Positions 43,243 to 53,393 of a DNA stretch of 64,000 nucleotides are shown here, piece after piece. The translations under genes were made by a program, and so were the position numbers. The stretch comes from Gemmatimonadota bacterium (GTDB lineage Bacteria; Gemmatimonadota; Gemmatimonadetes; Gemmatimonadales; GWC2-71-9): assembly GCA_041486305.1 (NCBI GenBank), contig JBGPLG010000009.1, positions 1,639 to 65,638 on the forward strand. Reading direction: 5' to 3'. The notes below the pieces were generated by a model, which saw nothing but the letters and a program-made list of their open reading frames with translations, was not told the DNA's origin and searched no databases. How positions within the stretch are numbered: position 1 is the stretch's first letter; every line of letters begins with the position of its first letter.

Positions 43243-44928
43243 TCATGGAGCAGCGGCGTACGTAATCTCCCCGTTGATCACCGTGTACAGCGTCTTGGTC
43301 TTCAGAATCTCGGCCTCCGGCACGCTCATGATGTCCTGGCTCAGGATCGTGAGATCGGCGAGCTTGCCGACCTCGATGGATCCACGCTGCGCCTCCTCGA
43401 ACGCCGCGAACGCCGGCCAGATGGTGAACATCTTGAGCGCCTGGCCCCGGGTGACCTTCTCCTCGGGGTGCCAGCCTTCTCCGGAATGGCCCGAGAGGTC
43501 CTTCCGCGCCACCGCGGCATAGAACTCTATCATCGGCTCTCCCCGCTCCACCGGGGCATCCGATCCGCCCGGCACCGGGACGCCGAGCTTGATGAACGTC
43601 TCCCACGCGTAGGCGCCCTTGAGCCGGTCCATGCCGAGCCGCGACGGCGCGAAGTAGAGATCGCCGATGGCGTGGGAGGGCTGCATCGACGCGATGATGC
43701 CGAGAGCCTTGAAACGTGGGATGTCATCCGGGTTCACGATCTGGGAGTGCTCGTCGCGCCAGCGCGGCTCCGCGATCTTCCGCTGATCCGGGGGAACCGC
43801 CTTCATGGCGCGCTCGTAGAAATCCAGCATCAGCCGGTTGCCGCGGTCGCCGATGGCGTGGGTGGACACCTGGATGCCGTTCTTCAGCGCCGCGATCAGC
43901 ATCGGCTGGAGCGCCACCGTGTCGGTGGTGATGAGCCCGGAGGTCCGCGGGTCGTCGGTGTAGGGGGCCAACAGGGCTGCGCCCCGGCTGCCCAGCGCGC
44001 CGTCCATGACCACCTTGATGTTGCGCACCGTGAGCTTGCCGGCGAACTCGCCCAGGACCGGTCCCTGCTCGATCAGTCGGTTCGCGTCCGCGCCGGGGCC
44101 GGTGATGTTCTTGTAGATCCGGATCTTGATCTTGCCGTCCTTGTACAGGCGTCGCATCCGCTCCACGTCGGCCCAGGTGCCGTGGGCGTCCTGGATCTGG
44201 GTCCAGCCCAGCTCCACCTCGCGCTGCACGCCTTTGATGATCTGTTCGTCCTGTTCCGCGTCGGTATCGGGAGGCACCAGCCGGCCGACCAGCCCCTGGG
44301 CCCGGTCGATCAGCATGCCGGTGGGCTCGCCGGAGGCGTCCTTGTTGATCGCGCCGCCCGAGGGGGGCCGGGTGTCGCGGGTGATGCCGGCGAGGCGGAG
44401 CGCGGCGCTGTTGGCGATCGACGCGTGCCCATCGGCCCGCTGCAGCACCACCGGATTGTTCGGCGCGATGCCGTCGAGGTCCTGCCGGGTGGGAAACACC
44501 GGCGGCTTCCAGAAGGTTTCGATCCACCCGCGTCCGGTGACCCACTGGCCCGCCCGGGCCTGATCCACCCGGGTCTTCACCCGCGCGAGAAACTCCTCCA
44601 AACTCTTGGTGCCTTCCAGATTGAGCGTCATCTCCCGCTCGCCCACACCCGACAGGTGCATGTGCGCGTCGGTCAGACCGGGCAGCACCGTCGCACCGCG
44701 GAGGTCGATCACCCGGGTATTGGGTCCGGTGAACTTCCTGGCTCCGCCGTTGTTGCCCACGAAGACGATCTTGTTTCCCTTGATCGCGACGGCATCCGCC
44801 CGGGCCTGCTTGTCGTTGGCGGTGTAGACCTTGCCGTTGGTGAAGACGAGGTCGGCCGGTTCCTGCTGCGGCCCGGAAACAACCGGCGCCAGCAGGGCCA
44901 GCGCGGCGGCGAGGGAGGGCCATTTCAT
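43243..44928 (-). CDS. Exported amidohydrolase_3 (YtcJ-like)
   Basis: Signal peptide; PGLTDAHMH, DGALGSRGA, HAIGDRGN, DEHSQ, GSDAPVE; ATGA-coupled to Vps10 paralog 3. Confidence 0.92.
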   Translation of the reverse strand: MKWPSLAAALALLAPVVSGPQQEPADLVFTNGKVYTANDKQARADAVAIKGNKIVFVGNNGGARKFTGPNTRVIDLRGATVLPGLTDAHMHLSGVGEREMTLNLEGTKSLEEFLARVKTRVDQARAGQWVTGRGWIETFWKPPVFPTRQDLDGIAPNNPVVLQRADGHASIANSAALRLAGITRDTRPPSGGAINKDASGEPTGMLIDRAQGLVGRLVPPDTDAEQDEQIIKGVQREVELGWTQIQDAHGTWADVERMRRLYKDGKIKIRIYKNITGPGADANRLIEQGPVLGEFAGKLTVRNIKVVMDGALGSRGAALLAPYTDDPRTSGLITTDTVALQPMLIAALKNGIQVSTHAIGDRGNRLMLDFYERAMKAVPPDQRKIAEPRWRDEHSQIVNPDDIPRFKALGIIASMQPSHAIGDLYFAPSRLGMDRLKGAYAWETFIKLGVPVPGGSDAPVERGEPMIEFYAAVARKDLSGHSGEGWHPEEKVTRGQALKMFTIWPAFAAFEEAQRGSIEVGKLADLTILSQDIMSVPEAEILKTKTLYTVINGEITYAAAP

Positions 44929-47900
44929 ATCGTGGTCCTTTCGCTGCGTAAATCGTCCGGCGGCACGGCCTTGGGCGCCACGGGATACAGACCCGCGTCG
45001 GCGAGCTGCTTGTAGAAGGCGGGCAGCCGGGCCATGAACGCGTTCACCTCCGCGATGGCGCCCGGAATGTCCTTCTTGAGCTCCCCGATCTGACGGATCT
45101 CGTCTTCGCTCGCCGGCGCGGTGGCTCCTTCGATTCCACCGGTCACGTTGCCGACCCGAAACCCGAGATTCTTCCGGAAGTCGTTGAAGTCGAAATCGGG
45201 CGCGGAAAAGTCCAGCCCGATGCCGAACTTCTTCTTCAGGGGCTCGAGCGCCTTGGTCAGGGAATCGAGCGTCGCCTTGACCGGCGCCGGGATCGCGGCG
45301 GTGTCGCCCAGGGCGGTCTTGATCTGGGTCAGCTGGTCATTGGCCTTACGCACCGCGGCGGTGGCGTGTTGCACCCGGCTGCCGATGGCCTGCAGCTCGC
45401 GCAGCGCGTCATAGCGGGCCCGGCGGTCGGCCTCGCTGATCGCGATGGCCGGCTCCCCGAGCACGCTGATCTTCCCGCTGCCCGCCTCCTTCCCGTTCAC
45501 CTGCAGCGCCACCTGATACTCGCCGGGGAGCACCAGCGGCCCCTCGGTGCCGTTGTCGCCCTGGCCGGCGCCGGGTGCCGGCGGCGTGTCGGGCTTCGGC
45601 CCGGGGATCGGCTCGATCCGGAGATCCCACACCGCTGCATTGACGCCCGGCGCGAGCCCGTCCTTGGTGGCGTTCCCCCGGAGGGTCCGCACCACGGCGC
45701 CGGCCGCATCCTTGATCACCACCGACACGCTGTCGGCCTTGGCGCCGAGGTGATAGGGAATCCGGGCGCCGAAGGCGGGGTTCTGTCCCAGCCAGATCAT
45801 GTTGCCTTCGAAGCCCCGCTCCCGGTCGTCCGCGACGCTGCGCTGGACCGCGGGCTCGACGTCGAAGAGAAAGTTGCCGGCCGCCTTCGCGGCGGCGTAC
45901 TGCTGGAACGGCGCCAGGTCGTCGAGGATCCAGATGGCGCGGCCGTGGGTGGCCACGATCATGTCGTTGTCGCGGGGGTGCAGGGTGATCTCGTACACCG
46001 GCACGGTCGGGAAGGTGCCGCCCACCTTGACCCAGGTCTTCCCCCGGTCGGACGTCACCCAGAGGCCGCTCTCGGCGCCGAGATAGAGCACGTCGGGGTT
46101 CTTGAGATCCTCGGTGATGGTTCGCACCACCTGGCCCTTGGGGAGGTCGCCGACGATGGATTTCCAGCCCTGCCCGAAGTCGCTGCTCATGTATGCATAG
46201 GTGCCGTAGTCGCCGACCTTGTGGCCGTCGAAGGTCACGTACACGGTCCCGTCGGCAAACCTCGAGGGCTCGACCTTGGAGACGTTGGCGAGGCGCGGCG
46301 CCCCGGAGATCCGGCCGGTCAGGTTGGTCCAGGAACCGCCGGCGTCCCGCGAGACCTGGACCTGGCCGTCGTCGGTGCCGGTGTAGAGCAGGCCGGCCAC
46401 GCGCCGCGATTCGGCGATGGTGAACAGGGTGCCGAAGTCGTTCACGCCGTCGTTCTTGGCGACGGTGATGTCCTTGCCCTTCACGCCCATCAGGGCCACC
46501 GTGTCCCGATTGATGCCCAGGCTCAGGTCGGGGCTGATCGCCTTCCAGGAGTGGCCCCGGTCGCGGGAGCGGTAGAGCCGGTGCCCGCCGGCGTAGATCG
46601 TCGCGGGGTCGTGGGGCGAGATGAGCAGCGGGGTATCCCAGTTCCATCGGATCGCGGTGTCGCTGACCGGCACCTCGGGCTTGATGCCCTTCCGCTCGTT
46701 GGTGGGCCGGTCCACCCGCGCCACGAAGCCTTCCTGCGATTCGGCGTAGATGATCCGGGGGTCGGTCGGATCGATCAGCGCGACGAACCCGTCGCCGCCC
46801 TGGACCACGAACCACTCATCCTGTCCGATGCCGTCGCGGCTCCGGACCTGGCTGGGGCCGCACCAGGTGTCGTTGTCCTGGAGGCCGCCGCAGACGGTGT
46901 ACGGTGTCTGCATGTCGTAGCCCACGTGGTAGAACTGCGCCACCGGGAGGTTGGGCAGCCAGACGTAGGTCTTGGAGCGGTCCCAGGTAACGCCGACCCC
47001 GCCGTCGCCGCCGATCATCGCGTGCTCGGAGTTGCTGGGGTCGATCCACAGCGCGTGGAAGTCGACGTGGATCTTCTCCGCGGCATTGTTGTTGAAGGTC
47101 TTCCCGCCGTCCTCCGACAGGTGCATCAGAGTGCCGCCGACCCAGATCCGCTTGTCGTCGTTGGGATCGATCCGGATCTGGGAGAAATACATCGGGCGCG
47201 GATTGGTGGAGCTCATCTTGCTCCAGGTGGCGCCGCCGTCGTCGGAGCGGTAGACCCCGCCCTGCTTGGGATGCTCGACCCGGGCGTACACGATATTGGG
47301 ATTCCTGCGATACACGTCCAGGCCGATCCGGCCCTTGTCTCCAGCGGGGATGCCGTTCTCGAGCTTGGCCCAGCTCCGGCCCCCGTCGACCGTCTTCCAG
47401 ATCGCGCTGTTGGGGCCGCCACCGTTGAAGCCCCAGCTGGCGCGGCGCCGCTGGTAGGTGGCGGCGTAGAGCACCTTGTTGTTCGACGGGTCCATCACCA
47501 GGTCGGTACCGCCGGCGTCGGGGCCGGCGTCGAGCACCCGGGTCCAGGTCATGCCCCCGTCGCCGGTCTTGTAGATCCCCCGCTCGCCGCCGGACCTCCA
47601 GAGATCGCCCAGCGCCGCGACGTACACCACGTCGTTGTCGATCGGGTCGACCACGATCCGGGGAATCTGCCGTGACTCCCGGAGCCCGGCGTTCTTCCAG
47701 GTCTTGCCGCCGTCGCTGCTCTTGTACACTCCATCGCCCCACGAGGAGCTCTGGCGGTTGTTCGATTCGCCGGTGCCGACCCACACCACGTTGGGATCGT
47801 TGGGGGCGATCGTCACGTCGCCGATCGAGCTGGTGCTCTGGGCGTCGAAGACCGGGGTGAACGTGGTCCCCTGGTTGACCGTCTTCCAGACTCCGCCAGT

Positions 47901-48131
47901 GGCGCTGCCCACGTAGAAGACCGCCGGGTTTTTCTCGAACACGGCGAAGTCATCGATCCGCCCGCTGGGCGCGGACGGGCCGATCGCGCGGAAACGCAGC
48001 CGGTCGAACGGCCCCCCCGGCTTGGCGGTATCGGGCTTCGCGGCCGGGGTCGCGGGCGTCTGTCCGAGGAGGGGCGTGGCCACGACGAGCAGACCGAGCG
48101 CACGGCGGAAGGCCGTCAGGGACTGAGACAT
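44925..48131 (-). CDS. Exported Vps10/BNR beta-propeller protein, paralog 3
   Basis: Signal peptide; FRAIGPSAPSGRI; Asp-boxes; GGLQDN; ATHGRAIWILDD. Confidence 0.88.
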   Translation of the reverse strand: MSQSLTAFRRALGLLVVATPLLGQTPATPAAKPDTAKPGGPFDRLRFRAIGPSAPSGRIDDFAVFEKNPAVFYVGSATGGVWKTVNQGTTFTPVFDAQSTSSIGDVTIAPNDPNVVWVGTGESNNRQSSSWGDGVYKSSDGGKTWKNAGLRESRQIPRIVVDPIDNDVVYVAALGDLWRSGGERGIYKTGDGGMTWTRVLDAGPDAGGTDLVMDPSNNKVLYAATYQRRRASWGFNGGGPNSAIWKTVDGGRSWAKLENGIPAGDKGRIGLDVYRRNPNIVYARVEHPKQGGVYRSDDGGATWSKMSSTNPRPMYFSQIRIDPNDDKRIWVGGTLMHLSEDGGKTFNNNAAEKIHVDFHALWIDPSNSEHAMIGGDGGVGVTWDRSKTYVWLPNLPVAQFYHVGYDMQTPYTVCGGLQDNDTWCGPSQVRSRDGIGQDEWFVVQGGDGFVALIDPTDPRIIYAESQEGFVARVDRPTNERKGIKPEVPVSDTAIRWNWDTPLLISPHDPATIYAGGHRLYRSRDRGHSWKAISPDLSLGINRDTVALMGVKGKDITVAKNDGVNDFGTLFTIAESRRVAGLLYTGTDDGQVQVSRDAGGSWTNLTGRISGAPRLANVSKVEPSRFADGTVYVTFDGHKVGDYGTYAYMSSDFGQGWKSIVGDLPKGQVVRTITEDLKNPDVLYLGAESGLWVTSDRGKTWVKVGGTFPTVPVYEITLHPRDNDMIVATHGRAIWILDDLAPFQQYAAAKAAGNFLFDVEPAVQRSVADDRERGFEGNMIWLGQNPAFGARIPYHLGAKADSVSVVIKDAAGAVVRTLRGNATKDGLAPGVNAAVWDLRIEPIPGPKPDTPPAPGAGQGDNGTEGPLVLPGEYQVALQVNGKEAGSGKISVLGEPAIAISEADRRARYDALRELQAIGSRVQHATAAVRKANDQLTQIKTALGDTAAIPAPVKATLDSLTKALEPLKKKFGIGLDFSAPDFDFNDFRKNLGFRVGNVTGGIEGATAPASEDEIRQIGELKKDIPGAIAEVNAFMARLPAFYKQLADAGLYPVAPKAVPPDDLRSERTTI

Positions 48132-48237
48132 AGATCGCTCCACGAGAGGGCGTCCCGGATTGTCAGAACAGCGGGGCGAGATAGCTTACCCTATGTTCCG
48201 GCGGGGGACAACGTTGAGCGCCGGCTTCGCGTGCGTC

Positions 48238-49692
48238 ATGAGGCTCCGAATGCGTGTGGCTATCTGGATGCTGTTGCTTTCGCCGGCGCTTGCCTCGTGC
48301 GGGGGGAGCCGGATCGAGGCACCGGAACCGACCCGGGACTTCAGCTTCGACGCCGATTCGCTGCCCCAGCTCCCCGCCCTGCCTCCCGGGACCATCGTGG
48401 CGCCGCTGGCCCTGGACCTGAACTCCGCCATCGCGGCGCTGGAGCAGGAGGTGCCCAGAAAGTTCGGAAACATCGAGGAACGCTTGTCGATTCCCGGGTC
48501 CAAGCGGCGGTCGTTCGCCTACGAGGTGACCCGCCAGCCGTTCAAGGTGAGGTTCGAGGGAGACACCGTCCTCCTTTCCGCCGTGGTCAGCTACAAGGGT
48601 CGCGGCTGGTACGACCCGCCCATCGGACCCGACATCAACGGGGAGTGCGGCACCAAGGGGCCGCCGCCCCGGGCTCGGCTCACCGCGCGGGTCGTACCCC
48701 GGCTCTCTCCCGACTGGAAGATCCGGATCACGACCCGGATGATCCGGCTGGCCCCGCTCACCGAGACCGAGCGGGACCAGTGCGAGGTTTCCCTCCTCAA
48801 CCTCGACGTCACCGGCAAGGTGATGACGGCGGCCCAGGCGGCCCTCAAGGGGGTCCTCCCGACCCTGGAGCGCCAGCTCGCCGCGCTCGACGTGCGCACC
48901 CCGCTGGAGAAGATCTGGCTGGACCTTCAGAAGCCGATAAAGATCACCCACAGCCTCTGGCTGCTGCTCGAGCCTCGAGGGGTCTACCTGGGCAAGGTCG
49001 AGGGCGCCAAGGAGACCATCGGGGCGGAGATCGGCATCTCGGCGGCGCCCCGGATCCTGAGCGGCCCCAAGCCGGTGCTGGCGGCCGTCGGTCTCCCTGC
49101 CCTGGAGCCGATCCGCGAGGTGGAGGGGTTCTCGATGCTGGTGGAAGGCGCCTTCGACTATGCGACGATGAGCGCCGTCCTCACCCAGAAGCTCCGCAAG
49201 ACGAAGGTCAAGGCGGCCGGCGGCGAGCTGGTGGTCAAGCGGGTCACAGTCTTCGGGGTGGGACGGGGGCGGCTGGCCCTGGGGCTCGATTTTTCCGGGA
49301 CGGCCGAGGGCAAGATCTGGTTCCAGGGCACGCCGCGCTACGACGCGGCCACCGGCATCCTCAGCGTCCCGGATCTCGACTTCGACGCCACCAGCGCCGG
49401 GATGCTGGTGCAGGGGGTGGCCTGGCTCAAGGGCGATGCCATCCGCGAATTCCTGCGGCAGCAGGCCACGGTGTCCACCGCCGACCTCATGGGGCGGATC
49501 CAGACGATGGCGGTCAAGGAGATGAACCGCCAGCTGGCCCGCGGGGTGACCCTGTCCTCCACCATCGACAAGTCCGAGCCGGCGGGGATCCGGGTCCGGC
49601 CCGACGCCATCGTGCTCCGGGCCCGCGCCTCCGGCTCGGCGCGGCTGGACCTGGGCCCCGAGCTGTTCGGCCCCCGGACCACCGGCAACTAA
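48238..49692 (+). CDS. DUF4403-like lipoprotein
   Basis: Lipobox LASC; long beta-rich protein with WLDLQKPI, WLLLEP, GTPRYD; start uncertain (48193, 48238 or 48250). Confidence 0.7.
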   Translation: MRLRMRVAIWMLLLSPALASCGGSRIEAPEPTRDFSFDADSLPQLPALPPGTIVAPLALDLNSAIAALEQEVPRKFGNIEERLSIPGSKRRSFAYEVTRQPFKVRFEGDTVLLSAVVSYKGRGWYDPPIGPDINGECGTKGPPPRARLTARVVPRLSPDWKIRITTRMIRLAPLTETERDQCEVSLLNLDVTGKVMTAAQAALKGVLPTLERQLAALDVRTPLEKIWLDLQKPIKITHSLWLLLEPRGVYLGKVEGAKETIGAEIGISAAPRILSGPKPVLAAVGLPALEPIREVEGFSMLVEGAFDYATMSAVLTQKLRKTKVKAAGGELVVKRVTVFGVGRGRLALGLDFSGTAEGKIWFQGTPRYDAATGILSVPDLDFDATSAGMLVQGVAWLKGDAIREFLRQQATVSTADLMGRIQTMAVKEMNRQLARGVTLSSTIDKSEPAGIRVRPDAIVLRARASGSARLDLGPELFGPRTTGN

Positions 49693-50735
49693 ACCACCGA
49701 TGCCGCCCGCACCAGCGGGATCACTTCCTCCGCGAAACGCTCCATCTCCTCCAGCTGCGGGCTGAACTGCAGCAGCAGCAGGTCCAGCCCCGCCTCCTCG
49801 AACTCGAGGATCTGTTCGGCGATCCGCTCCGGCGTGCCGGCCAGCCCGCTGCGGAGGCCGCGATTGGAGACCGAGTAGTCCTCCAGGCTCACCCGCTGCT
49901 CCAGCCGCGTATTGGCGATCCAGTCTTCGTAGTTGGCGTATCCGGCCGCGCTCTGCTTCACGTCGGTGATCCGGGCCACTTCGCGGCGGGCCTCCTCCTC
50001 GGTGTTCCGGCACACCACGTACCCCGCCGCGCCGAAGCGGAGCGGTGCGTGGCCCAGCCCGGCCGCCTCCCGCCGGGCGGTCATGTCCGAAACCCTCGCC
50101 GCGATCGTGGCGGGCGGATCGCCGTGCATGACATAGGCGTCGCAGCTCCGGGCGATGAGGGTCTTGGCTGCCTCGGATTCTCCGCCGGCATAGATCGGCG
50201 GGCGCGGTTTGCGGACCGGCTTCGGGGAGAGCAGCGCGTCGTCCACCGTGTAGTACCGGCCCTGAAAGCTGAATCGCGGCCGGCTCCACATGCCGTCGAC
50301 GACCGCGAGCCATTCTTCGGTGCGGTCGTACCGGGCCCCGTGCTCGTCGAACGCCACGCCGTAGCGGCGCGCTTCGTCGGCCCACCAGGAGGAGACCACG
50401 TTGAGCGCGAGCCGGCCGTTGCTGATGTGGTCGATGTTGGCGGCCTGCTTGGCCAGCAGCGCCGGGGCATGAAAGGTGGGCCGCACCGCCACCATCAACT
50501 CGAGCCGGTAGGTCACCGCCGCCAGGGCGGACGCGGTGGTCCAGGCGTCGAGCGCCGGCGCCTCCGGCCCCTTGATGTCGTTGAGGTTGAGCTCGGCGAT
50601 GAGCGTGAGGTCGAAGCCAAGCTCCTCGCTGCGGCGGGCCAGGCGGGCCACGTAGTCCCAGCGCGCCGCCATGCCTTCGTCGGCCACGTTGCGCAGCCAT
50701 CCGCCGAAGACCGGGAGCCAGTAGCCGAAGCGCAT
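49689..50735 (-). CDS. LLM-class flavin-dependent monooxygenase (SfnG/SsuD-like)
   Basis: MRFGYWLPVFGG, DAWTTASALAAVT, SNGRLALNVVSSWW, IYAGGES, GTPERIAE. Confidence 0.88.
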   Translation of the reverse strand: MRFGYWLPVFGGWLRNVADEGMAARWDYVARLARRSEELGFDLTLIAELNLNDIKGPEAPALDAWTTASALAAVTYRLELMVAVRPTFHAPALLAKQAANIDHISNGRLALNVVSSWWADEARRYGVAFDEHGARYDRTEEWLAVVDGMWSRPRFSFQGRYYTVDDALLSPKPVRKPRPPIYAGGESEAAKTLIARSCDAYVMHGDPPATIAARVSDMTARREAAGLGHAPLRFGAAGYVVCRNTEEEARREVARITDVKQSAAGYANYEDWIANTRLEQRVSLEDYSVSNRGLRSGLAGTPERIAEQILEFEEAGLDLLLLQFSPQLEEMERFAEEVIPLVRAASVV

Positions 50736-50737
50736 GG

Positions 50738-51703
50738 TCACGCCGCCTCCTGCTCCAGCCAGTCGACCAGGCGCACGAAGGGATCGAACCCGACGACTCG
50801 GGGCCCTTCGGCCACGAAATTCGACAGGGCGTTGATGTCGTAGAAGTAGGGCTTGCCGTCCCGGGAGTCGATGAGGTACTCGATGCCCCCGACGTCGATC
50901 CCCGCCGCCCGCGCGATGGCCTCCACGGCGTCGACCAGCTCGGCCGGCGGCGTGTAGCCCTCGACTTTCATCCCGTTCTTCGGCGCGTCCACGGCGCAGG
51001 CGCCCCGGACCAGCTCGGCGCCGTCCACCGTCCGGCAGACATCCGCCGGACACAGATTGAAGCTCTCGCCGGTCGGATAGACCCGGATTCCGTACAGGAA
51101 GGTCCCGCCCAGCACCTCGACCCGCACGATGCGGCCCTCCTCCGCCGGGACGTACTCCTGGACCAGCGCGGTGTGATCCATGCCGAGCTCCAGGTCTTCG
51201 AGCGACGCCTCAGTCAGGGCGTCGGCGCTGTCGAACAGCCGCACCCCGGCCCCGCTGCCGCCGATATTCGGCTTCACCACGACCGGAAAACGGAGGCCTC
51301 GCGCCGCCGCGGGCGCGTCGATGGCGCGGGAGATCACCCGGGAACGGGGATGCGGCAGGCCCAGCTGCCGGAGAATCGAGAGCTGCAGGGCCTTGGAGGT
51401 CTCGACCGCGTAGGCCCGGCTGCCGTTGATGACCCGGATCCCGTGGCTCTCCAGGTGGGCCAGGTAGGCCTGGGTGAGAAAGACCGCGTGGCCCGCGTCG
51501 CGCAGGTATGCCGATGGGCTCATCCGGTTGAACACCAGCCCGTAGGGCGGCCGGGGCGACGAAGGATCGTACCAGTGCTCCGCGGCATGGAGCCGCTTCA
51601 CCGGAATGCCGCGCCGCTCCAGCTCGCTGAACAGCGGGCGGAACCAGTCGGGATGCTCGTAGAGGATCCCGAAGGGCGCGCGAATGGAGGTAGCTGTCGT
51701 CAT
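50738..51703 (-). CDS. ATP-grasp ligase (RimK/GshB-like)
   Basis: FPVVVKPNIGGSGAGV, LVQEYVP, GGIEY, FYDINALSNF; stop overlaps a GTG in frame with the LLM gene. Confidence 0.88.
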   Translation of the reverse strand: MTTATSIRAPFGILYEHPDWFRPLFSELERRGIPVKRLHAAEHWYDPSSPRPPYGLVFNRMSPSAYLRDAGHAVFLTQAYLAHLESHGIRVINGSRAYAVETSKALQLSILRQLGLPHPRSRVISRAIDAPAAARGLRFPVVVKPNIGGSGAGVRLFDSADALTEASLEDLELGMDHTALVQEYVPAEEGRIVRVEVLGGTFLYGIRVYPTGESFNLCPADVCRTVDGAELVRGACAVDAPKNGMKVEGYTPPAELVDAVEAIARAAGIDVGGIEYLIDSRDGKPYFYDINALSNFVAEGPRVVGFDPFVRLVDWLEQEAA

Positions 51704-51720
51704 GCGAATCTCCCGGGGTA

Positions 51721-51759
51721 GAAAACGAAACGGCCGCGACTCTGTGGAAGTCGCGGCCG
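51721..51759 (-). terminator. Intrinsic terminator in the 5' leader (attenuator)
   Basis: On -: CGGCCGCGACT-TCCACAG-AGTCGCGGCCG followed by TTTCGTTTTC; ends about 17 nt before the ATP-grasp ATG. Confidence 0.88.
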
Positions 51760-51790
51760 ATGAGGCTGCCTGGCTCTCGCTACCGGGGAT

Positions 51791-51892
51791 CTAGGGGAAT
51801 CCCGGGCCGCGCGCACGCACGCTCACCGCCCACGACGGGGGGCGACACATGAGGTGACGGCTGGTACAGGTGCAGAGCGCGTGGGTCAGCAT
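51791..51892 (-). CDS. Putative Cys/Met-containing leader peptide (33 aa)
   Basis: [33 protein letters not shown]; lies between the promoter and the terminator; below the ORF-track size cut-off. Confidence 0.7.
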
Positions 51893-51898
51893 GGTTTC

Positions 51899-51926
51899 AA
51901 GATATCAGAACGAGGGTTCCAGGCAA
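51899..51926 (-). promoter_or_regulatory. Sigma70-like promoter giving a leaderless transcript
   Basis: -35 TTGCCT (51926-51921), 16-nt spacer ending TGA (extended -10), -10 TATCTT (51904-51899), 6 nt, then ATG. Confidence 0.65.
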
Positions 51927-51956
51927 GGGTGGCCGGGATCGCGCCAGCCTTGCCGG

Positions 51957-53393
51957 CTAGACCCTGCGGGTCTTCCACTTCCCCCGCTTGAACAGCACCG
52001 TGCTCGCCACGGCGAGGGTGGAAAATGCCACCGCGATGGCGATGGAGACACCGTTAGGGCCCAAGGCAAAGTGCTTGGCCAGCATCCAGGCGAGGGGAAT
52101 TTCCCAGAGCCAGAAGCAGAACAGATTGAGGAGGGTCGGGGTCCAGGTGTCCCCGGCGCCGTTGAACGAGCTGGTCAGCACCATGCCGTAGGCGTAGAAG
52201 AGAAACCCGGCGCTGATGATCCGGAGGGAGGCGACGCCGTAGCCATGCACGACGGGGTCCGCGGTAAAGGCCGAGATGATCACCGGGGCCAGGCTCACGA
52301 ACAGCAGCCCCACCACGCCCAGGAAGTACAGGTTGTAGCGGCTCGCCAGCCAGACCGACTGCTCGGCCCGGTCGGGCTTTCCGGCGCCGAGAGACTGGCC
52401 CACCATGGTCGCGGCGGCATTGGCCATGCCCCACGACGGCAGCAGCGCGAAGATCACCACCCGGAAGGCAATGGTGTAGCCGGCCAGAGCCTGGCTCCCG
52501 AAGGACGAGACGACCCGCACCAGCCCGATCCAGCTGGTGGTCCCGATCAGGATCTGGAAGATCCCGGTGCCGGAGAGCTTGATCAGCCGGCCGATCAGGT
52601 CGAGGTCGAACCGGAGGTGCTCTTTCCGGATCACGAAGCGGTTGTGGCGCTCGGTGAGGCGGTAGAACTGGTAGACTACGCCCATCCCTCGGCCCACCGT
52701 GGTGGCCACCGCGGCGCCGGTAACGCCCAGGTGGGGAAACGGTCCGATGCCGAAGATCAGGAGCGGGTCCAGGATCAGGTTGCAGATGTTCGCGATCCAG
52801 AGCGACCGCATCGCGATGGTGGCATCGCCCGCGCCCCGGAAGATCGCGTTGATGAGAAAGAGCAGCAGGATGATGAAGTTCCCGCTGAACATGATTCGGG
52901 CGAAGGTCGAGCCCCCGGCGATGACCTCGGGCGAGGCTCCCATCAACCCGAGCAATCGCGGGGCGAATAACCCGCCGGTGATCGCGATGGGGATGGCGAC
53001 CAGGATGCCCAGCCCGATCGCCTGCACCGCCGCGCGGGCGGCGCCCTCGGGGTTCTTCTCGCCGATCCGGCGGGCCACCATCGCGGTGGCGCCGATGCCG
53101 AGGCCCATGCCCAGGGCGTAGATGGTCGTGAACATCGCCTCGGTGAGGCCGACGGTCGCCACAGCATTGGCGCCGAGCCGGCCGACCCAGAAGACGTTGA
53201 CCACGGCAAAGACCGATTCGAGCGCCACCTCCAGCACCATCGGCACCGCCAGGAGGAGCAGCGCCCGGCCGATGGGACCCGCGGTGTAGTCGTGGCGATG
53301 GGCGCCGCGGACCGCCTCCCTCACCGCCGCCCAGATGGTAGGCGGCGGTGGCTCGATGGCGGGGGGTTCGGGCTCCGGGGCCGGGGTACTCAT
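51957..53393 (-). CDS. MATE family efflux transporter
   Basis: [44 protein letters not shown]; ATGA overlap start MSTPAPEP. Confidence 0.93.

Follow-up and report, generated by a model that had tools for sequence, protein, structure and literature searches.

A putative cysteine- and methionine-sensing transcription attenuator upstream of an ATP-grasp/monooxygenase gene pair in a Gemmatimonadota bacterium

The window analyzed here is a 64,000-nucleotide (nt) stretch of contig JBGPLG010000009.1 from a Gemmatimonadota bacterium of the order Gemmatimonadales (assembly GCA_041486305.1). On its minus strand, between a MatE efflux gene and an operon for an ATP-grasp ligase and a luciferase-like monooxygenase, a short leader is found with cysteine (Cys) and methionine (Met) codons followed by an intrinsic terminator. 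We consider this element, with good confidence, to be a ribosome-mediated transcription attenuator that senses Cys and probably also Met. The anatomy of the leader, its conservation and its recurrence with sulfur-metabolism genes are directly observed. An earlier note on this DNA had proposed such a Cys/Met leader with terminator and antiterminator over an organosulfur-scavenging operon. This core claim is supported by upstream open reading frames (uORFs) in several phyla, by their terminators and by the copies of terminator arms that they contain.

A search of 61 related genomes gives 15 orthologs of the ATP-grasp protein at 58-94% identity. Seven of them are from the same genus, which makes eight leaders together with that of the window (the genus leaders). 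The promoter hexamers, uORF, terminator and pairings listed in the earlier note are all found on the minus strand at the positions it gave, as read from the sequence. The features of the leader are as follows.

51921 to 51926, minus strand: -35-like hexamer TTGCCT; CTTGC is invariant in 8/8 genus leaders and the spacer is variable.
51899 to 51904, minus strand: -10-like hexamer TATCTT, separated by a 16-nt spacer from the -35 hexamer and 6 nt before the uORF ATG; invariant in 8/8 genus leaders.
51791 to 51892, minus strand: uORF of 33 sense codons plus a TAG stop (ATG 51892-51890, stop 51793-51791).
51866 to 51874, minus strand: regulatory codons Cys7 (TGC, 51874-51872) and Cys9 (TGT, 51868-51866); invariant in 8/8 genus leaders and in 6/6 metagenome copies.
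51845 to 51850, minus strand: regulatory codons Met15 (ATG) and Cys16 (TGT); ATGTGT in 7/8 genus leaders.
51861 to 51885, minus strand: leader nt 8-32 with the codons Cys7 and Cys9, a candidate for region 1; it would be the 5' partner of an anti-antiterminator with nt 60-92.
51837 to 51851, minus strand: leader nt 42-56 with the codons Met15 and Cys16, an alternative to region 1 (region 1'); it would form a local hairpin as the 5' partner of nt 62-75.
51822 to 51836, minus strand: region 2, GTCGTGGGCGGTGAG, putative 5' strand of the antiterminator and an imperfect copy of the terminator 3' arm.
51807 to 51822, minus strand: motif GCGTGCGTGCGCGCGG, invariant in 8/8 genus leaders; it overlaps the CGCGGCC (51811-51805) of the earlier note.
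51786 to 51803, minus strand: small hairpin GGGAT/ATCCC with the TAG stop in its loop; four core pairs are kept in 8/8 genus leaders, with G-U variants.
51750 to 51764, minus strand: region 3, CTCATCGGCCGCGAC, putative 3' strand of the antiterminator, which combines the flank with the terminator 5' arm; invariant in 7/8 genus leaders.
51731 to 51759, minus strand: intrinsic terminator hairpin (regions 3:4) with 12 pairs, 9 of them G-C, a loop of 5 and -23.8 kcal/mol.
51721 to 51730, minus strand: U-tract TTTCGTTTTC; T-rich in 8/8 genus leaders.
51710 to 51714, minus strand: Shine-Dalgarno (SD)-like GGGAG of the ATP-grasp gene, 3' of the terminator; GGAG is kept in 8/8 genus leaders.

An in-frame TGA is located 15 nt upstream of the uORF, so the ATG at 51892 is its first possible start. 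The residues of interest are Cys7, Cys9, Met15 and Cys16, and the pair Cys7/Cys9 is the counterpart of the first Cys cluster in related leaders (CC/CxC-x5-MC(C)). No family in Pfam or NCBIfam matches the uORF peptide at threshold. Sub-threshold matches to nitrile hydratase alpha (E 0.12 and 0.025) are treated as chance. The terminator with its U-tract is present, with a stem of 12 pairs in our scan instead of the 11 bp given before. One unpaired change is found in region 3 of the ortholog L008. An Rfam E-value scan of 51400-52300 returns 5 matches, all far below gathering scores; none of them explains the leader and none is an S-adenosylmethionine (SAM) family. The full leader folds somewhat better than its shuffles (z = -2.2).

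Within the genome of the window, the leader stands alone. No second similar leader is found by DNA similarity: the leader itself is the only match below E 0.01, and the other matches cover 15-42 nt with E 0.02-6. Of the two copies of the GGCCGCGA...TCGCGGCC hairpin in the genome, one is followed by a T-tract, and this copy is the terminator described here. The genome has 1211 Cys-rich short open reading frames (ORFs), 15 of them with a terminator-like hairpin downstream. Only that of the window looked leader-like, with the other 14 not viewed singly.

Comparison of the genus leaders shows which parts of the element are kept. All seven same-genus orthologs have the -35 core and TATCTT, the uORF with its ATG, its stop and both Cys7 and Cys9, and the stem of the terminator. 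Kept as well among the genus leaders are CATCGGCCGCGAC, which is the flank with the terminator 5' arm, and GTCGCGGC, which is the 3' arm. A 10-bp core of the terminator is invariant and its loop is variable, as is the promoter spacer. The mean column identity of the genus leaders is 89%. The sole indel within the uORF is one of 3 nt, in L006 (from the unpublished genome G009), while indels of 1-4 nt are found after the stop. In L039, the ATP-grasp protein is 91% identical to that of the window. The upstream gene differs in L003, L005, L006 and L008, where the leader and the terminator remain beside the ATP-grasp gene; in L003, another hairpin similar to a terminator is located farther upstream. 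A scan of metagenomes with a 20-nt invariant stretch gives 22 loci, which are 6 leaders and 16 unrelated matches. All five of these leaders with flanking DNA precede ATP-grasp orthologs, and the six show no new variation in the antiterminator.

A decayed leader remnant is observed in another member of the genus (L121 ~124-434, genome G001, 93% complete), where it follows the MatE gene and no ATP-grasp ortholog is found. The ATG is changed to AAG and the TAG to CAG, and the Cys9 codon and the terminator are lost.

We extended the comparison beyond the genus with a scan of one genome per species. It gives 80 loci, which together with the first set and after removal of 3 duplicates make 93 loci. 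For each locus the best uORF within 450 nt upstream is taken; loci of related organisms are not independent in these counts. A uORF with at least three Cys within 12 residues is found on the sense strand of 48/93 loci, compared with 8/93 on the antisense strand and 281/1860 in shuffles. The difference increases with the threshold: at least four Cys are found in 31/93 sense, 1/93 antisense and 30/1860 shuffled regions, and at least five in 23/93, 1/93 and 5/1860, respectively. Cys uORFs (at least three Cys) and terminators (within 130 nt of the gene) are both present in 38 loci and both lacking in 36, with the uORF only in 10 and the terminator only in 9. Thus, the Cys codons that the earlier note proposed to look for upstream of ATP-grasp orthologs recur in several phyla and co-occur with terminators. 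The genomes of these relatives are labelled Acidobacteriota, Chloroflexota, Methylomirabilota, Actinomycetota and Bacteroidota.

The nucleotide sequences of the leaders are unrelated between groups, and each group has its own type. Terriglobia and Ca. Angelobacter have leaders of the MCCCMCMCTRERPVLSNFS type, with similar ones in one metagenome-assembled genome (MAG) of Limnocylindrales and one of Actinomycetota. The type is MCMCACR... in Methylomirabilota, ...ACACSYCCMCR... in Longimicrobiales and ...CACCCCG... in Vicinamibacterales; in Pontibacter it is ...TCCCCCCC, at the C-terminus. Consecutive Cys runs such as CCC and CCCCCCC are found in many orthologous leaders and are absent in the window (C-x-C, M-C). 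At one Vicinamibacterales locus, the ATP-grasp gene is separated from a poly-Cys leader (…ACCCCCG…) and the terminator of this leader by a tRNA-Cys(GCA) gene (L085 2888-2960). There are 40 loci with fewer than four Cys and no terminator, and the full upstream flank was scanned in 37 of them (all except L011, L012 and L015). In 9 of these 37, a Cys uORF is found ~600-780 nt upstream, before an inserted gene which, where tested, codes for an NADPH-dependent flavin mononucleotide (FMN) reductase similar to SsuE. The conserved module is thus an optional SsuE-like reductase, the ATP-grasp ligase and the monooxygenase.

The codons themselves seem to be what is selected in these leaders. Both TGT and TGC occur in the 12 leaders of the acidobacterial type. 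In their aligned columns Cys and Met replace each other (C9/M3; M9/C2/L1; M6/C2/T2/P1/I1), and the GAG CGG CCG that follows these columns is invariant, leaving GAGCGGCC unchanged. The Cys-richest 12-residue windows of 31 leaders contain 42.7% Cys and 14% Met. The peptide shows no conservation outside its Cys and Met residues, whereas the ATP-grasp protein is 58-94% identical. These patterns suggest selection on codon meaning. Other Gemmatimonadota leaders also contain motifs related to GCGTGCGTGCGCGCGG, but read in another frame, in which they code for one more Cys; this indicates a constraint at the RNA level.

A second common property is a segment of the uORF that is complementary to the terminator 5' arm. 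Such complementarity is found in 20/45 leaders at p<=0.05 and in 15/45 at p<=0.01. In the window, as in leaders of the acidobacterial type, the segment begins 7-10 nt past the last Cys codon. In the acidobacterial type, the invariant GAGCGGCC, 7-8 nt past the last Cys, is the exact complement of the terminator 5' arm (p<=0.005 in most). In the window, the antiterminator strand begins 10 nt past Cys16. When the leader is cut before the 3' arm, GTCGTGGGCGGTGAG folds with CTCATCGGCCGCGAC through 14 pairs and one G.G mismatch. The duplex has -27.7 kcal/mol compared with a shuffle mean of -20.0, and one of 200 shuffles is as low (p ~0.005). The flank beside CGGCCGC varies by lineage (CTCAT, GTGAT, GAGAT), and the antiterminator strand matches it (GTGAG, ATCGCG, ATCTCGC, ATCTT). 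For 19 distinct flank pairs, the own combinations give 48 consecutive matches against 35.2 +/- 4.4 for permuted ones, and 32 of 5000 permutations reach 48; a few rows of this set are reverse-strand readings of palindromic terminators, which adds noise.

The earlier note had assigned two other pairings. It took CGCGGCC in the late leader with GGCCGCG of the terminator 5' arm as the antiterminator. The complementarity exists in the window, and it keeps 5-6 of 7 pairs in 6/7 genus orthologs and 7 pairs, by means of a G-U, in one. Its duplex energy of -16.5 kcal/mol is weaker than the -27.7 kcal/mol of the 14-bp alternative (51836-51822 with 51764-51750), which is the better-supported pairing. We therefore rejected it as the main antiterminator, being weaker and partly conserved, and keep it as a possible secondary pairing. 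The other is a competing hairpin of CGCGCTC (51881-51875) with GAGCGTG (51824-51818). These segments can pair and 96.4% of the cells are compatible, but no covariation is found and the energy is only -12.4 kcal/mol; the hairpin is neither confirmed nor rejected. Two other helices are candidates. Region 1 (nt 8-32) with nt 60-92 has -25.9 kcal/mol and is present in the minimum free energy (MFE) structure of the full-length leader, and the local hairpin of nt 42-56 with nt 62-75 has -16.3 kcal/mol. All helices are compatible with the alignment of the eight genus leaders: the antiterminator has 96.4% of its cells paired, the local hairpin 90.4% and the terminator 89.6%. Segments nt 8-32 and nt 42-56 are candidates for holding the antiterminator strand during unhindered translation.

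From these features we infer the following course of events. Transcription would begin at or next to the ATG of the uORF, 6 nt past the -10 hexamer. When Cys-tRNA is plentiful, the ribosome would cross leader nt 57-71 and proceed to the TAG. The early leader would then re-pair with nt 60-92, the 12-bp terminator (51759-51731) would form, and RNA polymerase would halt in the U-tract at ~51730-51721. A shortage of Cys-tRNA (or Met-tRNA) would make the ribosome stall at codons 7/9 or 15/16, all of which are upstream of nt 57. A stalled ribosome would leave GTCGTGGGCGGTGAG (51836-51822) free for CTCATCGGCCGCGAC (51764-51750), the terminator 5' arm would be sequestered, and the polymerase could read into the ATP-grasp and monooxygenase genes. 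The geometry would suit such a switch: the antiterminator strand (nt 57-71) has all Cys/Met codons (nt 19-48) on its 5' side and the stop (nt 100-102) on its 3' side, whichever of the two states is the default. Masked equilibrium folds do not separate these states.

The assignment of the operon to sulfur metabolism, also made in the earlier note, is supported by the genes that follow this leader type, which include CysM-like, rhodanese and SsuE-like ones, and by the SAM riboswitches of other lineages. R1, a covariance model built from the genus leaders, matches 19 of 151 genomes of the family, including that of the window, and thus gives 18 new leaders. Eleven of them are upstream of ATP-grasp orthologs, either directly or before the reductase gene. 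The remaining seven precede four beta-carbonic-anhydrase genes, one CysM/K-like gene and one rhodanese or 3-mercaptopyruvate-sulfurtransferase-like gene, or are the decayed remnant (L121) in one case. The beta-class carbonic anhydrase genes after the leader are at L125 1684-2202, L130 1687-2205, L135 1576-2103 and L138 945-1442, with L125 and L138 coming from the unpublished genome G181. Cys control of these genes would suggest a role in sulfur acquisition, like that of carbonyl sulfide (COS) or carbon disulfide (CS2) hydrolases. At L134 508-1461, minus strand, a gene for a CysM/K-like pyridoxal-phosphate enzyme (TIGR01136 302 bits, cut-off 344) follows a Cys-rich leader and terminator. A gene for a two-domain rhodanese similar to 3-mercaptopyruvate sulfurtransferase does so at L137 1684-2568.

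A SAM-I or SAM-II riboswitch is found upstream of the operon in 8/92 loci at Rfam gathering thresholds, and seven of these eight loci have it in tandem with a Cys uORF. All four Pontibacter loci, from cultured species, have SAM-I (L078 2531-2633, L063 2568-2670, L083 2531-2633, L096 2531-2634) directly upstream of a uORF ending in 3-7 consecutive Cys codons, and the ATP-grasp/monooxygenase pair follows. A control with two inputs in series, SAM and Cys, is possible in Pontibacter. SAM-II (SAM_alpha) is found in Longimicrobiales/Gemmatimonadota loci (L046 2660-2735, L067 2600-2671, L074 1819-1894, L016 1308-1381); the first three have it in tandem with a Cys uORF and L016 has no Cys uORF. In different lineages, different RNA devices thus place the operon under the control of sulfur amino acids, which fits the Met codons in the leaders. 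In a Blastocatellia locus, two Acido-Lenti-1 RNA matches are observed on opposite strands (L109 1078-1123, minus, and 1211-1256, plus), ~1.8 kb upstream of the ATP-grasp gene.

A leaderless or near-leaderless start at the uORF ATG is suggested by the spacing of the -10-like hexamer. In 22/51 leaders, where ~3.2 would be expected, a TAnnnT hexamer ends 5-9 nt ahead of a start codon, ATG or GTG, which is in frame and precedes the first Cys. These leaders are mostly from Gemmatimonadota, and the acidobacterial type has a longer spacing. Public sequencing runs were consulted in the form of contigs: 24 are listed, one of them is an RNA library, and the alignment of 4 yields neither transcript starts nor ends, with the uncovered parts being uninformative. 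A contig from a soil RNA library (run X24) covers 51771-51894 and matches the leader of a relative with 8 differences. Read-through from the MatE gene or contaminating DNA could account for it, and a start at the ATG gains no support from it.

Several observations weigh against the interpretation as an attenuator. By itself the leader of the window is unremarkable: its uORF holds only three Cys codons with none consecutive, and at least three Cys in 12 residues are also found in 281 of 1860 dinucleotide shuffles of the upstream regions (15%). The promoter pair matches at 8/12 positions, below the threshold of the scan, which reports 0 promoter-like sites. The RNA-library contig (168 nt, depth 2, from a relative similar to L004) runs 44 nt upstream through the promoter. 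Regulatory codons are lost in two leaders, Cys16 in L004 (TGG) and Met15 in the metagenome copy L157 (ATA). In 36/93 loci neither a Cys uORF nor a terminator is found within 450 nt, and most Gemmataceae and Armatimonadota loci lack a comparable leader even when the region farther upstream is scanned. The covariation suggested as a check in the earlier note is absent, with 0 compensatory double changes within the genus for any helix tested: the eight genus leaders contain no double change in the antiterminator, the local hairpin, CGCGCTC:GAGCGTG or the terminator. The structural support therefore rests on energies and on comparison across lineages. Folding under ribosome masks, another of its suggestions, is uninformative; with the whole terminator present, the terminator is in the MFE structure under every mask. 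In addition, the naked leader cut before the 3' arm favors the antiterminator by ~8 kcal/mol (-60.9 vs -52.7). Since the models favor the antiterminator without the 3' arm, the switch, including termination when Cys is plentiful, would have to rest on the ribosome and on kinetics, as in classical attenuators.

Some of these points would also fit other explanations. The Cys uORF could be a real sensor that acts on translation of the ATP-grasp gene or through Rho-dependent polarity, with the hairpin as a constitutive partial terminator. The only Cys uORFs studied by experiment act on translation (bioRxiv 10.1101/834739), no alternative helix shows covariation within the genus, and naked-RNA equilibrium alone does not yield termination. 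However, the SD GGGAG (51714-51710) is 3' of the U-tract and outside the conserved helices. Furthermore, a copy of the terminator 3' arm lies within the uORF in unrelated leaders (15/45 at p<=0.01), which is needed for a terminator/antiterminator switch and not for a translational one. We therefore regard this explanation as unlikely. A structured RNA sensor, such as a riboswitch or a protein-binding RNA, in which the short ORF is incidental or secondary, would account for the 89% mean column identity of the genus leaders, for the conservation of GCGTGCGTGCGCGCGG at the RNA level in another frame in other lineages, and for the SAM riboswitches found on the operon elsewhere. Yet no Rfam family reaches threshold on the leader. 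The unrelated leaders of several phyla share only in-frame Cys/Met runs, a terminator and an antiterminator copy; 2-3 bases must change for Cys and Met codons to be exchanged, and the indel in the uORF keeps the frame. Such a sensor is decidedly improbable.

The uORF might instead code for a functional Cys-rich peptide, either a precursor of a peptide that is ribosomally synthesized and then post-translationally modified (RiPP) for the ATP-grasp and monooxygenase enzymes or a metal-binding peptide, with the hairpin setting the ratio of precursor to enzyme. RimK-type ATP-grasp ligases modify peptides, and a small Cys-rich ORF before modifying enzymes resembles RiPP clusters; the Cys motif of nitrile hydratase alpha is weakly matched (E 0.12 and 0.025). 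These matches are far below the cut-offs, however, and the peptide is not conserved beyond Cys and Met. An FMN reductase or tRNA-Cys gene may separate the uORF from the ligase, and the same leader type precedes beta-carbonic-anhydrase, CysM-like and rhodanese genes without an ATP-grasp gene. A peptide function thus has a very small chance of being right, and the graspetide-like precursor was rejected on gene context, with only Cys and Met common to the leaders. A chance ORF in G+C-rich DNA beside the ordinary terminator of the MatE gene has the least chance of all. The number of Cys codons and the single terminator-like site of the window are indeed within the range of shuffles (1 per 2.5 kb in the scan; shuffle mean 1.3), so that the features of the window alone are not beyond chance. 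Conservation is beyond chance and contradicts this explanation: the leader and terminator stay with the ATP-grasp gene where the upstream gene differs (L003, L005, L006, L008), a separate hairpin similar to a terminator is present upstream in L003, the leader is decayed in a genus member where no ATP-grasp ortholog is found, and Cys uORFs are strongly enriched over antisense and shuffled sequences.

The genes around the putative attenuator are as follows.

End at 51957, minus strand: MatE efflux gene, the upstream neighbor, with a 253-nt gap to the ATP-grasp ATG.
50738 to 51703, minus strand: gene for a RimK/LysX-like ATP-grasp ligase of 321 amino acids, with its ATG at 51703; first gene of the operon (Pfam RimK 3e-08).
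49689 to 50735, minus strand: gene for a luciferase-like FMNH2-dependent monooxygenase of 348 amino acids, similar to SfnG/SsuD; second and last gene of the operon (Pfam Bac_luciferase 4e-65).

The ATP-grasp protein is without a close characterized relative: every NCBIfam match is far under its cut-off, and among solved structures cyanophycin synthase and RimK come nearest, with E 1e-8 to 1e-6. The monooxygenase gene begins 2 nt past the ATP-grasp stop. Its product is nearest to SfnG (TIGR04021 251.7 bits, cut-off 383), and its solved relatives bear the names alkanesulfonate and dimethylsulfone monooxygenases. The two proteins probably form an organosulfur-scavenging pair. The gene after the monooxygenase is convergent, so the operon has two genes. 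This convergent ORF of ~500 amino acids (48160-49692, plus strand) has no match in NCBIfam, and a large Sortilin/BNR-repeat protein gene is observed at 44925-48143 on the minus strand. The assembly of the genome has 4.7 Mb in 211 contigs and is 92% complete.

Classical attenuators are those of the trp, his, leu, thr and pheA operons of enterobacteria. The leader in the window is similar to them in the logic of regions 1-2-3-4, in the position of the regulatory codons 5' of the antiterminator strand and of the stop 3' of that strand, and in the terminator 3:4. In contrast, it would sense Cys together with Met, it has an apparently leaderless start instead of one led by an SD, and it precedes scavenging enzymes and not a biosynthetic pathway. 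SAM-I (S-box, RF00162) and SAM-II (RF00521) riboswitches are found before the same operon elsewhere, and they also report the status of sulfur amino acids by premature termination or occlusion. They bind the metabolite with an RNA aptamer, whereas the leader of the window has no SAM match and would sense through translation.

Among known Cys-sensing leaders, the closest were described in mycobacteria by Canestrari et al. in 2020, where leaderless short ORFs (sORFs) with poly-Cys attenuate translation by SD masking (bioRxiv 10.1101/834739); these authors call uORF-mediated attenuation for cysteine previously undescribed. A comparison shows in both a short, apparently leaderless first ORF with Cys codons before sulfur or cysteine operons. 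A design shared by several loci (a "ribulon") is a further likeness, as would be ribosome pausing as the sensor of charged tRNA-Cys. The mycobacterial mechanism is translational, with a downstream SD being unmasked and no terminator, whereas in the window a 12-bp terminator, a U-tract and an antiterminator copy are found and the SD is outside of them. Moreover, the Cys codons of the window are not consecutive, Met is co-enriched in its relatives, and the host belongs to Gemmatimonadota and not to Actinomycetota. Brewer et al. predicted in 2021 a terminator-based Cys attenuator, uORFC-8-2, before cysS in Rhodobacterales (PMC8632094). It is likewise a predicted ribosome-mediated attenuator with uORF Cys codons followed by an intrinsic terminator. 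It is set apart by tandem Cys codons at 14-15, by cysS as its target and by its restriction to one alphaproteobacterial order. In the window, Cys is at 7, 9 and 16, an ATP-grasp and a monooxygenase gene are downstream, the start appears leaderless and Met codons are involved. The earlier note knew of no terminator-based form in this lineage, and for the lineage it is indeed new; in general it is not, with the form already predicted in Rhodobacterales (PMC8632094). Seliverstov et al. predicted in 2005 Cys leader peptides before cys/cbs operons of Actinobacteria, without recognizable terminators (PMC1262725), whereas the terminator and antiterminator of the window are clear. The literature searched contains no report on leader peptides with Cys/Met in either Gemmatimonadota or Acidobacteriota, or on this ATP-grasp/monooxygenase pair being under sulfur control; the search did not cover most subscription journals and supplements.

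A wider interpretation is tentative, and we consider it, together with all its parts, somewhat short of probable. The window would contain one copy of a sulfur-sensing cassette that occurs across phyla and is possibly mobile. Its interchangeable Cys/Met codons would make it a sensor of sulfur amino acids and not of a single amino acid, and its leader would be built with a terminator and a copy of a terminator arm. In some lineages it would be wired in series with a SAM riboswitch. It would travel with the uncharacterized SsuE/ATP-grasp/monooxygenase operon, which might constitute a new scavenging route from organosulfur to cysteine. In Gemmatimonadaceae, it would belong to a cysteine regulon sensed by ribosomes, with CysM-like, rhodanese and beta-carbonic-anhydrase-like genes, the last maybe coding for COS/CS2 hydrolases.

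Cys-sensing leader attenuation is known to be demonstrated in mycobacteria only, at the level of translation, and is predicted for cysS in one alphaproteobacterial order. The leader described here suggests that Gemmatimonadota have a version for Cys/Met which is terminator-based, and the phyla of its relatives have almost no attenuators with an assigned signal. The mixed Met/Cys codon runs raise the question whether one leader integrates two amino acids, and the tandem of SAM riboswitch and poly-Cys uORF in cultured Pontibacter would be a tractable RNA logic gate with two inputs. For the widespread and unstudied ATP-grasp/monooxygenase pair, the leader suggests a role, with induction by sulfur limitation, and it may provide a lead to a new sulfur-scavenging reaction.

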